Shown one piece after another: positions 1 through 10,084 of a stretch of DNA of 10,143 nt. The first letter of the stretch is position 1. Each line of letters opens with the position of its first letter. The stretch is from Candidatus Hermodarchaeum yapensis. Its GTDB lineage: Archaea; Asgardarchaeota; Hermodarchaeia; Hermodarchaeales; Hermodarchaeaceae. Location of the stretch: the NCBI GenBank assembly GCA_016840405.1, contig JAEOSK010000058.1:1-10143 (forward strand). The letters are read 5' to 3'. The position numbers were made by a program, and so were the translations under genes. The notes beneath the pieces are model-generated. The model was given only the letters and a program-made list of their open reading frames with translations. It ran no database searches and was not told where the DNA came from.

Positions 1-1600
1 TATGAGTTTCAATGCGATTGCCATTGATTCTCTATACCAATTTGGAGGACCGGTGCCGAAGGTTGTCCATGGCTTTACACTAATTCCATTGCCAAGCAAG
101 GAATTTACCACTTAACGGTCTTATCCGCTCCTGTTCAGGACCCTTTCCCTAGCCCCTGTCATCCTGCCACTGATTGGGTCAAGGATGATGTGTTCTCGTT
201 GCCAAGAACCTTAGAGCGCCACACTTTATTGTCAGTAACCAGATGAAGACCACGACGTGCAATTTCAGTGGCTGCACTAATGTCTCGTGGAACTTTTGCG
301 CCACATGCAGGACAGTGAAACACTTCGAAATATCCTTGAGGTATAAGACAAAGACATTGTCTAGGGCAGGCGGGGGAAGAATAAACTGCATTGACTCTGA
401 TTACAGGTAAATTATGTAGACTAGCTTTCATACAAATGGTTTCAAAGAGTCTTCCCCGTGCCCATTTACTAAGTTGATCTCTCATTGAGGAACTTGCCCA
501 TCGAGTTCGCTCTTTCGTTGGAACATAATTTCGAAGATCTTCTAGAACAATTATTGGATGTGGGAACTGACTTGCATAATTAATTACTGCTTTTGCTGTC
601 ACATGAATCCAATGTTGAATAACACGCTGTGTTTTCTCATCTATATCTTGTATACTTTCTGATTTTTGTTTGCGTGCAACGTTTTTTCGTTTTGCCCAAA
701 GTGATGCTAACCGATGTTTAAGTTGTTTTCCAGAGATAGATTTGGCTGGGTGGATCCTTTGATCGAACGTTAGCGCAACTACAGCAGCTAACGTATTTAG
801 TCCTAAATCCACACCTATCAGGGTTGGCTGTTCTAGGCTTGAAATATCTGGTATATTAACTGATACTCGGATTGGAGTTGCCATTTGTATAACTCCATCT
901 TTGACAAGAAGCCGAGATGATCCGATTTTCAGTGATGGTATACCAGAAATTGATTGACGAAGAAGCCTTTCAGGTTCTCCACCAATTACTACTTGGGTTT
1001 TCTTAGCAACCTTATCGATTGACACCTGAATATTATTCGTTTTTGAATCAATGTAAAACCGTGCGCCATCAATTGCTGTCTGGGGCCATTGGCCATGATT
1101 TTTTCCTGGCCATCCTTTAAGATAATTTGAGTGAGATATTATTCTTGGAAGACTCTGTAAGGGATCAAAATTCGCAATGCCTTGTTTCTTTGCCCATTTT
1201 GCCCATTTCTGTATTCCCTGATCTGTTAGAAATCTCTCCTTTCGTCTTATATTAAACCAAACAAATGCTTCTTGTGATGCTTGGTTAAGCATCTTCGCGG
1301 ATAATCGTGAAAACCATTTATTGTTACGAAGTTCGTGGTAAGTTTCTTTGATAGTTCGTTTGTGTTCTTCTAAGCTAATCAAGAAAGCATTAATTGCTCT
1401 TGTGTATATGCGACGCAATTTTCTGACTAAGTTTGTGGATATATTCGGTAGACGCAACCACACTGTTCGCGTAACGAAATCTGTTTTCATGAAATGTGCT
1501 TTAGTCCATTGATGTTGTCTATTGATTGTAGCCACAAAGCATCACTCAGGTAAAAAATGATATAGCCCGGTTATTTTTCAACAGAGACCTTGGTATAATT
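1..1600 (-). mobile_element. tnpB-only (IS1341/IS605-like) insertion element; ends not resolved and right end possibly cut by the window edge
   Basis: Inferred from the tnpB ORF plus structured, G+C-richer sequence downstream of its stop: a 7-bp stem 159-165/182-188 straddling the stop codon, and a 9-bp bulged hairpin at 83-104. I could not identify terminal hairpins or a target motif with confidence. Confidence 0.35.
159..1535 (-). CDS. tnpB: TnpB-like (IS200/IS605 OrfB) RuvC-fold, probable RNA-guided endonuclease
   Basis: 458-aa ORF with the split RuvC plus zinc-finger order typical of TnpB: RuvC-I LIGVDLGLNTLAAV (D), RuvC-II IIVLEDLRNY (E), Cys cluster CPRQC...CPAC, then RuvC-III PRDISAATEIARRG (D). 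ATG start at 1535. A TATA-like CTATATCA lies about 25 nt upstream on the minus strand. No Y1 transposase (tnpA) is visible. Confidence 0.85.
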   Translation of the reverse strand: MATINRQHQWTKAHFMKTDFVTRTVWLRLPNISTNLVRKLRRIYTRAINAFLISLEEHKRTIKETYHELRNNKWFSRLSAKMLNQASQEAFVWFNIRRKERFLTDQGIQKWAKWAKKQGIANFDPLQSLPRIISHSNYLKGWPGKNHGQWPQTAIDGARFYIDSKTNNIQVSIDKVAKKTQVVIGGEPERLLRQSISGIPSLKIGSSRLLVKDGVIQMATPIRVSVNIPDISSLEQPTLIGVDLGLNTLAAVVALTFDQRIHPAKSISGKQLKHRLASLWAKRKNVARKQKSESIQDIDEKTQRVIQHWIHVTAKAVINYASQFPHPIIVLEDLRNYVPTKERTRWASSSMRDQLSKWARGRLFETICMKASLHNLPVIRVNAVYSSPACPRQCLCLIPQGYFEVFHCPACGAKVPRDISAATEIARRGLHLVTDNKVWRSKVLGNENTSSLTQSVAG

Positions 1601-1641: not shown

Positions 1642-1687
1642 AAGCACCCGCCATTTCCTATACGCGCATCGGGCCGGTAGTCTAGTT

Positions 1688-1716
1688 ATCCGGTTACAAC
1701 ATGTGCTGGACTAGAG
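1688..1716 (+). other. tRNA intron 1 (29 nt) in the D loop, canonical 3-4-3 BHB
   Basis: Central helix CTAG (1682-1685) pairs with CTAG (1711-1714). Bulges are TTA (1686-1688) and AGC (1715-1717). Inner helix is 1689-1694/1705-1710. Cutting after the 2nd nt of each bulge gives exon ends 1687|1717. Confidence 0.75.
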
Positions 1717-1730
1717 CGGTATGATGCGAG

Positions 1731-1760
1731 AAGGAAAACCGGTTCTGTTTTTCTCGCAAG
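1731..1760 (+). other. tRNA intron 2 (30 nt) in the anticodon stem (position 30/31), canonical 3-4-3 BHB
   Basis: Central helix TGCG (1725-1728) pairs with CGCA (1755-1758). Bulges are AGA (1729-1731) and AGG (1759-1761). Inner helix is 8 bp, 1732-1739/1747-1754. Cutting after the 2nd bulge nt gives 1730|1761 and a perfect 5-bp anticodon stem. Confidence 0.8.
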
Positions 1761-1834
1761 GTTTGGGACCTCGTGGTCCCGAGTTCAAATCTCGGCCGGC
1801 CCACCACTTTTGCTTACCCAAGTGTTCACAACAC

Positions 1835-1860: not shown

Positions 1861-1982
1861 GGTGGCGCGGTCATAGAAGCTGGGTCACACCCGGTCTCGT
1901 CAGATCCCGGAAGTTAAGCCGGTTTCGTCGCCGTGAGTACTGATATCCGAGAGGCGTCGGGAAAATGGTGAACTGCGCCACT
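1861..1982 (+). rRNA. rrf: 5S ribosomal RNA
   Basis: GGTCATAG...ACACCCGGTCTCGT...CCCGGAAGTTAAGCC...GAGTACTG matches conserved 5S loop A/B/C and helix elements. Helix I forms between GGTGGCGC (1861-1868) and GCGCCAC(T) (1975-1982). Length is about 122 nt. A T4 run follows at 1985-1988. No 16S or 23S gene is in the window. Confidence 0.9.
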
Positions 1983-6667: not shown

Positions 6668-6809
6668 TGTCGTTTCTTCGTGAGGCTAATTACATTACGC
6701 TTACCAAATTACATAATCATCATCATGATCCTATTGGAAAAAATATGGCGCACTCAACATCAAGCGCCACTGATAAATCATCAAAAATCACTCTTACTAG
6801 GTGGCGATT

Positions 6810-8136
6810 ATGGGAGCAAATGAAGAAAGTACAGGTACTACTAAGTATTGTATTCGTGGAAAAATCGAAATAGATGGAGTAGTTGAGACCCCCGATGTCG
6901 TAGGCGCGCTCTTTGGTCAAACAGAGGGCCTACACTTCATATCACAGATGTGAAGGGGTAATCGGTGAAGATTTGGATCTTAGAGAGTTACAACAATCGG
7001 GGCGAATTGGTCGAATAAAAGTAGAACTGAATTCAGAAGGCGGTAAATCACAAGGCACCATTACTATTCCCTGTAGTCTTGATCGGACTGAAACCGCAGT
7101 TCTCGCAGCTGCAATGGAAACCGTAGATCGAGTTGGTCCTTGCGCCGCGAAAATTACCTTAGAAAAACTAGAAGACGTACGCAAAGAAAAACGAAAACGA
7201 ATCATTGAACGAGCCGTGGATCTTCTACGAGATTGGGAAGGAGAAGTATCACCGGATTCGCAAGAAATGACAGATACTGTCATGAAAGAATCACGTACGG
7301 CAGGGATTGTGAAACTAGGGAAGGAAAAACTTCCTGCTGGACCGGATGCAGAAACTTCTAACACAATCATTGTTGTTGAAGGCCGTGCAGATGTGCTATC
7401 CTTGCTTCGTTCAGGTGTGAAAAATGCAGTTGCAGTAGAAGGTACTTCGATTCCAAAATCAATCGTTGATTTGATCAAATCAAAAACTGTGATTGCCTTC
7501 CTTGACGGCGATCGAGGAGGAGATTTAATTCTCAAAGAGCTTGCTCAATTAGCAAAAGTTGACTACGTTGCGAGAGCGCCAACAGGAAGAGAAGTAGAGG
7601 AACTAACTCACAAGGAAATCACAAAAGCCCTCCGAAACAAAATTCCAGCTGGACAGGTGCTAGGAAAGACCATTAGAAAAGCCAAAGCTCCGGTCAAAGT
7701 CACTCCAAAAGCGAAACGGCGAGGTCGGCGACCAACTGCACAGAAACCGAAGGAAACCCGTCAGAGGACAACTCGTTCTACAAAACCGGACACACTCCGA
7801 ACTAAAGAACACCCAAAGGTCAAGAAGAAACCGAAAGATCTCGGAATTCCGAAAGCAGTTCTTGATTCATCTCAAAAAATTCAACAGACGATGATGGCTT
7901 CAATTCTTGATAATGATTTGAAACAACTTAAGGAGACACATGTCGGAGAGATAGCCAACGAGTTGCAGAAACAGAAAAATGCCCAAGTCCTCATTTTAGA
8001 TGGAGTGGTAACACAACGGCTTATCGATATTGCCGAAGAACGTGGCGTCGAACTAATCATTGGAGTCCGCATTGGAAATATCGTCAAGAAGCCAGCAAAA
8101 ATGCGCATTCACACATTCGATGAACTGCGACAATAA
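6810..8136 (+). CDS. dnaG: DNA primase DnaG (archaeal Toprim primase / exosome-associated), split by a 28-nt BHB intron: exon 1 6810..6933, exon 2 6962..8136, 432 aa after splicing
   Basis: Exon 1 (codons in phase with 6810) encodes [41 protein letters not shown], the conserved DnaG N-terminus. It is preceded by SD-like AGGTGG (6799-6804). Exon 2 (codons in phase with 6964) encodes [22 protein letters not shown]..., [22 protein letters not shown], the Toprim blocks [10 protein letters not shown] and [12 protein letters not shown], and the C-terminal [14 protein letters not shown] domain. Read collinearly, frame 1 stops at TGA 6951. The ORF track therefore only shows a truncated ORF from TTG 6913. 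Confidence 0.85.
6934..6961 (+). other. putative BHB (tRNA-endonuclease-type) intron inside the dnaG coding sequence
   Basis: Central 4-bp helix GCCT (6928-6931) pairs with GGGT (6956-6959): G.U, C-G, C-G, U.G. The 3-nt bulges are ACA (6932-6934) and AAT (6960-6962). The inner helix is 9 bp, 6935-6943/6947-6955, with loop ACA. Cutting after the 2nd nt of each bulge joins C6933 to T6962, making a CTC Leu codon and restoring the frame. The outer helix is weak (only G6927-C6963). Confidence 0.7.
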
Positions 8137-9614: not shown

Positions 9615-10084
9615 TTAGGTTTTCCGTTTATCGATTGAATGGCGTGTTTTAACGGCGACTCCTCTTGTGAGTTCAAGCATCTCTTGAGGACTTAATTGAG
9701 CCACTCCGACAGCAAGTAATTCATCCTTATTATTCACTATGAGCACCTCATCACCTGCACGAAGTTGGGGGTCCACATCTTCCACATGCTTTGCAAAAAG
9801 AGTGCGACCTTCAGCAATAAAATGGGCAATCTCTTGATGAACTGTTGCGCGGAGCCGTGGATATTTAACAGCAGCATGTAAGCGTTTAGCGCCCAAGATT
9901 GTTAGAACAATACGCCCATCAGTTGCGCGAATTGTCGCAAGGACTTGGGAAGCCAATGTTACTCTTCTAAGGCGCCCAGTTCGTTTGGACACTTCCACTT
10001 TGCAGGTATCGGGGAATATCTTATGTCCTACTTGTGAGCTGAATTGATAGTTAGCAATGCCTCTTACTCTGTGTAAGCGTTCAT
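9615..10084 (-). CDS. stand-alone TGT_C2 + PUA domain RNA-binding protein (ArcTGT C-terminal-like); start codon unresolved
   Basis: The ORF from GTG 9998 encodes ...SKRTGRLRRVTLASQVLATIRATDGRIVLTILGAKRLH plus a PUA domain (FAKHVEDVDPQLRAGDEVLIVNNKDELLAVGVAQLS...GVAVKTRH). The same frame stays open upstream to the TAG at 10112..10110 and encodes ERLHRVRGIANYQFSSQVGHKIFPDTCKVEV. That is the conserved start of the TGT_C2 domain (ADYQFG-type motif), so coding sequence extends to at least 10082. The only nearby ATG (10084..10082) is one nucleotide out of frame. Confidence 0.7.

Follow-up and report, generated by a model that had tools for sequence, protein, structure and literature searches.

A candidate endonuclease-spliced mini-intron in the dnaG coding sequence of Hermodarchaeota-like archaea, and a similar insert in a second Asgard clade

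Introns of archaeal messenger RNAs (mRNAs) that are recognised by a motif termed bulge-helix-bulge (BHB) are documented for the coding sequence of cbf5 in Crenarchaeota and for the 5′ untranslated region (UTR) of HVO_1309 (PMC7714728, PMC10485636), and a 2023 review expects more of them (PMC10485636). Here I describe an insert of 28 nucleotides (nt) in the dnaG gene of Candidatus Hermodarchaeum yapensis. It lies at positions 6934-6961 of a 10,143-nt stretch of DNA (contig JAEOSK010000058.1, forward strand), the whole of which is called the window below. Judging from sequence comparison, the insert is most probably an archaeal endonuclease-type (BHB) intron within the dnaG coding sequence.

The cbf5 intron, known from Aeropyrum, Sulfolobales, and Desulfurococcales, is cut between the second and third bulge residues, mostly in relaxed motifs, and lies in phase 1 (PMC2738675). 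The dnaG insert resembles it in being short, in interrupting a coding sequence within a codon of a highly conserved motif, and in being misannotated by gene callers as a frameshift (PMC2738675). The cbf5 intron depends on a hetero-oligomeric (alpha-beta)2 endonuclease (PMC2738675), and the Asgard splicing endonuclease EndA has been assigned to that type too (PMC5829648). The host gene and the lineage are different: dnaG (NF003108) in Hermodarchaeota-like Asgard archaea, not cbf5 in Crenarchaeota. The two introns are not orthologous, the cbf5 intron lying at the codon of the catalytic Asp in Desulfurococcales or Sulfolobales. Moreover, the splicing of cbf5 has been shown experimentally, whereas I infer that of dnaG.

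The HVO_1309 intron of Haloferax volcanii is a BHB intron of 46 nt in the 5′ UTR and yields a circular intron RNA (PMC7714728; PMC10485636). It is likewise a small intron in an mRNA, and the HVO_1309 mRNA is a substrate of the archaeal splicing endonuclease. Unlike the dnaG insert, it is located in an untranslated leader and leaves the reading frame uninterrupted. The Haloferax EndA is homodimeric (alpha'2-type) and needs a canonical BHB, whereas the dnaG motif is relaxed. The same architecture as in dnaG, with a length of 28-30 nt and a weak outer helix, is found in the relaxed-BHB transfer RNA (tRNA) introns of TACK and Asgard archaea, two of which lie in the tRNA-Pro gene of the window. Unlike these, the dnaG mRNA has no tRNA body to aid recognition, and its junction must preserve the frame. 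In the splicing of eukaryotic XBP1 and HAC1 mRNA by IRE1 and RtcB, a protein endonuclease recognises stem-loops (the XBP1 intron being 26 nt), the ligation is of the RtcB type, and the frame shift upon intron removal decides which protein is made. The IRE1 endonuclease and its recognition motif differ from those considered here, and the IRE1 system is stress-regulated, while there is no evidence of regulation for dnaG. RtcB and XBP-1 are mentioned in PMC8718801.

The first-pass annotation of this DNA held that BHB introns in mRNAs are known essentially only for cbf5. This stands for coding sequences, of which cbf5 is the sole documented case, but not for mRNAs in general, since the intron in the 5′ UTR of HVO_1309 is also known (PMC7714728). 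A search of the freely accessible literature for a dnaG intron or for BHB introns in Asgard mRNAs found nothing. The novelty lies in the host gene and the phylum, with apparently two separate gains. If the dnaG intron is real, dnaG would join cbf5 as only the second protein-coding sequence of archaea known to be split in this way, and it would be the first such case in the closest relatives of eukaryotes.

Inserts in dnaG of two Asgard clades

The dnaG gene of the window is split between two reading frames. Frame 0 opens at the ATG at 6810 (MGANEES) and hits the TGA at 6951-6953, as had been claimed from the sequence, while the rest of dnaG, including the Toprim and C-terminal domains, is in a +1-frame open reading frame (ORF) at 6913-8136. 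The two ORFs overlap over 6913-6953. From unspliced RNA, a 47-amino-acid peptide is the only possible product. The BHB cut rule, which places the cuts after the second nucleotide of each bulge, has no free parameter. It was confirmed that the rule takes out exactly the 28 nt in question, makes a junction codon from C and TC (Leu), and gives a full-length DnaG of 432 amino acids. The first-pass annotation had named a profile search with this spliced translation as a check; the product matches the NCBIfam model NF003108 (DnaG equivalog) at positions 1-419 of 419 with 522.2 bits, so that the N-terminus is fully covered. The downstream ORF by itself scores 464.6 bits at profile positions 26-419. 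The predicted spliced mRNA reads GGGCCTAC joined to TCGGTGAAG (as a k-mer, ACAGAGGGCCTAC joined to TCGGTGAAGATTTGG), the predicted junction of a circular intron is GAAGGGGTAA joined to ACTTCATATC, and the predicted junction-spanning peptide is FGQTEGLLGEDLDLR, with Leu at the junction. The coordinates of all features are collected in Table 1.

Is the insert found in related archaea? The closest DnaG sequences in databases (65-93% identity), which come from metagenome-assembled genomes labelled Hermodarchaeota or Hermodarchaeia and some with other Asgard labels, are all truncated at the N-terminus. More distant Asgard DnaG sequences, at an identity of about 50%, show the full length, with the motif FGQTEGLLGxELDLRELQ. 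The dnaG DNA was collected for 20 insert-bearing Hermodarchaeota-like loci from NCBI, JGI, ENA, and Logan assemblies, giving 15 distinct sequences. Between the FGQTE and DLRELQ codons, the window has a gap of 49 nt with a +1 shift; 17 related loci share this, and two further loci (L093 and L094, with a 31-nt insert) have 52 nt. In all 80 of 80 other, uninterrupted archaeal dnaG loci, the gap is 21 nt and in frame, which bears out the seven-residue spacer of the first-pass annotation as usual for archaeal DnaG. Thus, the excess is exactly 28 nt (or 31 nt). The insert lies at the identical nucleotide in all 20 loci. Since a same-site insert with sequence variation recurs in 20 independent assemblies, misassembly is excluded. 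On this comparison and the codon-position counts below, the insert is no artefact and the gene no pseudogene.

Gene callers annotate the locus as a 47-amino-acid ORF and a truncated DnaG; the first-pass annotation had held that an intron here would be invisible to them. The called starts of the downstream part vary between genomes, and some arise from out-of-frame Phe-Gly codons. It was also noticed that the 3′ end of the putative intron (window 6952-6966) reads EGVIG in the downstream frame, resembling the exon motif EGLLG. Thus, both profile and pairwise alignments of truncated dnaG calls run into intron-derived residues (at query position 11 in a search of protein-cluster representatives), which is an annotation trap. 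An origin of the insert by local duplication was considered on account of this likeness and was dropped, because the similar stretch shares positions with the hypervariable loop and with helix strands. Further copies of the intron of either clade (see below) were not found outside dnaG in 570 kb of loci, and thus nothing points to a repeated mobile element.

Codon-position variability was counted in 14 clade sequences. The variable sites at codon positions 1, 2, and 3 number 1, 4, and 28 in exon 1 (34 codons) and 30, 10, and 97 in exon 2 (100 codons), which indicates that both exons are translated and constrained in their own frames by purifying selection. Ten of the 28 positions in the insert vary, and they fall 4/4/2 on the codon positions without periodicity (Fisher p=0.001 versus the exons). 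Its loop varies at all three positions, with ten different loops seen, and the remainder at 7 of 25; except for the loop, the insert is far more conserved than synonymous sites. In the proposed structure, 98.4-98.5% of the cells are paired, versus 37-53% for slid-partner controls, the central helix being 100% paired across 14 distinct sequences and the stems of the inner hairpin 97.6%. In the central helix, a C/U change at 6929 retains pairing with G6958, and a U/C change at 6959 retains pairing with G6928 (G.U in six sequences and G-C in eight). Three pairs of the hairpin have double-sided changes (C-G to U-A, U-A to C-G, and A-U to G-C). This number was matched by one of 500 shuffles in a covariance-model alignment, which is itself fitted to the structure and was used instead of a MAFFT alignment that misaligned the 31-nt variant L093. 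A check of dnaG orthologues for an insert at the same codon and for compensatory changes in the helices had been proposed earlier; it shows insertion at one nucleotide in the 20 loci, and compensatory changes in these three pairs. By these counts, the insert evolves like a structured RNA, with a hypervariable loop, conserved stems, and no codon periodicity. Position 6961, within the putative intron, is A or T, and T6962 and C6963 are invariant. Thus, the junction codon is always CTC, and Leu is the Asgard consensus.

A second clade was found among 80 metagenomic dnaG loci. One of them, L055, had been missed by the motif scan and proved to be interrupted too. Its closest full-length homologues are the DnaG sequences of Freyarchaeota and Jordarchaeum (60-63% identity), and every one of its near relatives in databases (79-99% identity, with one named Jordarchaeales) is truncated. 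This Jordarchaeales-like clade comprises L055 and L102-L106, which give four distinct sequences. Here the insert immediately follows the Gln codon of FGQ, at a site 6 nt upstream of that in Hermodarchaeota, in the context TTC GGC CAA, TTACGT...GGCAAA (the insert), TTG GAG GGG, and its excision yields FGQLEGLLG in every case. The architecture is alike, with a GGCC/GGCA helix, an AAU bulge, a hairpin, and AAU, and one hairpin pair varies between U-A, U.G, and C-G across the members. An exonic GGCC precedes the insert in both clades. Since the frame offset of exon 2 tracks the length of the insert (Table 1), excision fits these loci, while a fixed frameshift mechanism does not. The second-clade insert was apparently gained independently of the Hermodarchaeota insert.

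I regard it as a serious but tentative possibility that endonuclease-spliced mini-introns have repeatedly entered essential protein-coding genes in Asgard archaea. If so, the introns of the Hermodarchaeia-like and Jordarchaeales-like clades, 6 nt apart in the invariant FGQTEGLLG, would point to a hot-spot or to intron mobility linked to tRNA splicing, and their recurrence in two Asgard classes would be a tractable case for the gain and retention of protein-dependent introns in coding genes. There would then be a wider, presently invisible class of mRNA introns that truncates Asgard gene calls, and the supply of DnaG would depend on EndA/RtcB activity. All database DnaG sequences of both clades are annotated as N-terminally truncated, which distorts orthologue sets, phylogenies, and completeness estimates. 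When protein-cluster representatives were searched with the downstream ORF of dnaG as the query, five DnaG representatives of 38-50% identity (P0351, P0371, P0410, P0440, and P0442) were seen to have their first residue at the FGQTEGLLG/DLRELQ motif or shortly behind it. Such starts may reflect fragments from contig ends, or an interruption at this spot in other lineages as well.

Table 1. Features of the window and dnaG inserts of the second clade. Positions refer to the window unless a locus is named.
Feature	Position	Strand	Remarks
dnaG exon 1	6810..6933	+	Translation; its final C opens the junction Leu codon; adds NF003108 positions 1-25
Putative intron ACTTCATATCACAGATGTGAAGGGGTAA	6934..6961	+	28 nt, phase 1; boundaries predicted by the BHB rule
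dnaG exon 2	6962..8136	+	Stop codon included; opening TC completes Leu; Pfam Toprim and NF003108 matches
Central helix H, 5′ strand GCCU	6928..6931	+	Exonic; pairs with 6956-6959
5′ bulge B1, ACA	6932..6934	+	Predicted cut between 6933 and 6934
Inner hairpin h'	6935..6955	+	9 bp: 6935-6943 with 6947-6955; loop ACA 6944-6946
Central helix H, 3′ strand GGGU	6956..6959	+	Intronic; pairs with 6928-6931
3′ bulge or loop B2, AAU (AUU in some relatives)	6960..6962	+	Predicted cut between 6961 and 6962
Second-clade dnaG insert, L055	L055:2606-2636		31 nt; exon 2 offset +1
Second-clade dnaG insert, L102	L102:1987-2018		32 nt; exon 2 offset +2
Second-clade dnaG insert, L104	L104:1598-1628		31 nt; exon 2 offset +1
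Second-clade dnaG insert, L106	L106:2009-2042		34 nt; exon 2 offset +1
tRNA-Pro(UGG)	1671-1806	+	Interrupted by non-canonical BHB introns at 1688-1716 (D-loop) and at 1731-1760 (position 30/31)
TnpB/Cas12f-like ORF	159-1535	-	OrfB_IS605, Cas12f1-like TNB, and RuvC-like domains; adjoins tRNA-Pro and the 5S ribosomal RNA gene
5S ribosomal RNA gene	1863-1981	+	
Small Toprim-domain protein, 139 amino acids	6248-6667	+	Immediately upstream of dnaG
TGT_C2/PUA-domain gene	9615-10070	-	Without in-frame ATG, GTG, or TTG upstream of the conserved RGIANYQF start region

Fold, predicted cleavage, and competing explanations

The first-pass annotation described the insert as a 3-4-3 BHB. The helix, the bulges, and the 9-bp hairpin are present, but with a single pair as its outer closure this is a relaxed motif and no strict 3-4-3 BHB. 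The central helix consists of four pairs (G.U, C-G, C-G, and U.G) with local pair probabilities of 0.89-0.98, and this helix together with the 3-nt 5′ bulge is the local minimum-free-energy fold in 12 of the 13 distinct sequences of the clade. The 5′ bulge ACA has closing pairs at either end. The outer helix h is 1 bp, or there is an alternative helix of 2-3 bp that makes the 3′ site an internal loop. The mere presence of a BHB motif was rejected as evidence, since the counts in the window equal those in shuffles. Motifs with an inner helix of at least 9 bp number about five per strand of the window, so that a chance match at one given position is expected at roughly 5 in 10,000. Since loose motifs are common by chance, the significance rests on the exact positional match and on conservation. 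Rfam has no match in 6780-7100 at E of 1 or less, and no homologue was found by sequence in the PDB for placing the motif of the insert in a structure.

Within the pre-mRNA, GCCU of the exon probably pairs with GGGU of the putative intron. The resulting 4-bp helix would be flanked, 5′, by a well-formed ACA bulge and, 3′, by a loosely closed AAU, with the 9-bp hairpin in between. EndA, in the broad-specificity (alpha-beta)2 form found in Asgard archaea, would cut at the two sites listed in Table 1. An RtcB-type ligase would join the exons and would probably circularise the intron, and the spliced mRNA would encode the full-length protein. EndA cleavage, RtcB ligation, and any regulatory consequence are steps that I infer. 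The splicing machinery is plausibly present in the host. Asgard archaea have been assigned an (alpha-beta)2 EndA with an L1 loop linked to relaxed specificity (PMC5829648), and introns are found in 92-95% of the tRNA genes of Atabeyarchaeia and Freyarchaeia, often at non-canonical positions (PMC11291895). The tRNA-Pro of the window, which sits 5 kb from the dnaG insert, needs the same splicing activity and thus indirectly supports its presence in the host. In both of its introns the central helix is 4 bp long and the outer helix no more than 1-2 bp. As the first-pass annotation stated, the same cut rule gives a correct tRNA: after both removals, a clean 74-nt cloverleaf with an encoded CCA is obtained. 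The interrupted gene was missed by ARAGORN (default) and by Rfam at the gathering threshold. Scoring brute-force double deletions with ARAGORN proved too permissive for placing the introns; a scan for BHB geometry followed by ARAGORN on the spliced sequence did place them.

L093, the 31-nt variant, follows the cut rule too, as do the second-clade inserts of 31, 32, and 34 nt. Against the DnaG profile, the product of the rule (522.2 bits) scores above those of the neighbouring registers (519.9 and 518.0 bits) and above the frameshift read-through (502.6 bits). The exact cut register is predicted only from these small score differences and the consensus. Taken together, the conservation in the clade, the selection on the exons, the structured insert, the fit of the rule, the tRNA-Pro, and the second clade argue for a BHB intron.

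Several observations weigh against it. The 3′ AAU is closed outwardly by G6927-C6963 only; this single outer pair means that the motif is of the relaxed HBh' or bulge-helix-loop kind, and that no closed 3-nt bulge holds the 3′ cut site. Two of the four central-helix pairs are G.U, and in a 170-nt context a rival exon hairpin (6908-6915/6922-6929) cuts the central-helix probability to about 0.02. Loose BHB-like motifs with an inner helix of at least 5 bp number 181 per strand of the window versus about 172 in shuffles. The stems contain mismatches (U-U in two lineages and G-G in one), and the covariation is modest, resting on three pairs. With the neighbouring cut registers, the junction residue would be Ile/Phe or His, and other archaea do have GLFG and GLIG. 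When predicted proteins were searched with the spliced N-terminus, no hit of more than 71% identity spanned the junction, and neither a product of a spliced transcript nor a close intron-less relative was found among predicted proteins. Finally, no endA or rtcB gene was found in the window or in the flanks that were fetched.

Could the insert be handled in another way? Excision by some other nuclease and ligase, or by an unknown RNA-processing activity recognising the hairpin, would suit the facts that the 3′ half of the motif is no proper bulge, that loose BHB motifs are frequent by chance, and that endA is not in the window. I consider it improbable, since no other archaeal mechanism is known for the precise removal of 28-34-nt inserts and the EndA rule gives both junctions unadjusted in two clades and in the neighbouring tRNA-Pro. 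A self-splicing group I or II intron was rejected, as 28 nt is too small for a ribozyme core of hundreds of nucleotides and Rfam gave no match. At the other extreme, the two parts may not be joined at all, the locus being a pseudogene, a misassembly, or a split gene for the 47-amino-acid peptide and a separately initiated C-terminal protein, which is how gene callers annotate it. This is the least credible explanation: the insert recurs with sequence variation in 20 independent assemblies, purifying selection on both exons is strong, the downstream part has no conserved start codon (the called starts differing by genome), and the exon ends abut exactly, rebuilding an invariant motif of nine residues.

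Two explanations place the joining in translation, and I give both very little weight. Programmed +1 ribosomal frameshifting within 6913-6950 would produce a DnaG with about nine extra residues. In its favour are the overlap of the ORFs at 6913-6953, a stable hairpin, an in-frame stop, and the fact that the Hermodarchaeota insert lengths of 28 and 31 nt both imply +1. However, the insert has no coding periodicity, most of its changes being at the first and second codon positions, the read-through product falls 20 bits short of the spliced one, and a conserved slippery sequence is absent. In addition, the stop is part of the hairpin's 3′ arm instead of preceding a stimulator, and the Jordarchaeales-like clade would need a switch from +1 to +2 on a 1-nt loop difference. 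Translational bypassing of the phage T4 gene 60 type, with take-off near CUA 6930-6932 and landing about 28 nt downstream, is about as hard to believe. A hairpin does follow the putative take-off codon, and hopping over 28 nt in the -1 register would produce GLIG or GLFG, both of which are found in other archaea. On the other hand, the take-off and landing codons are unmatched (CUA versus GUA or GCA, the latter variable in the clade), no stop follows the take-off codon, and the matched CAA...CAA pair of the Jordarchaeales-like clade would land out of frame. Archaea are not known to use translational bypassing.

Neighbouring genes in the window

The gene order around dnaG is a TYW2/Trm5-like methyltransferase, a class I Trp/Tyr-tRNA synthetase, the small Toprim protein, and dnaG, followed by a 94-amino-acid ORF, ATP synthase subunit D, NAC, a PUA protein, and a proteasome-type AAA ATPase. 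The arrangement of the small Toprim gene and dnaG is kept in both intron-bearing clades, and the wider gene order of the window is common to Hermodarchaeota-like loci only.

In some relatives, the TGT_C2/PUA gene has short calls, and an intron was also considered for this gene. It was rejected, as one of these loci (L001) has a run of N and the ORF of the window is continuous. The first listed start of this gene, at 9998, would remove conserved residues. The situation, including the lack of an upstream start codon (Table 1), is alike in several relatives, with AAA or ACG in place of the ATG of L004. It points to a non-canonical start or to some other unrecognised feature in the TGT_C2/PUA gene.

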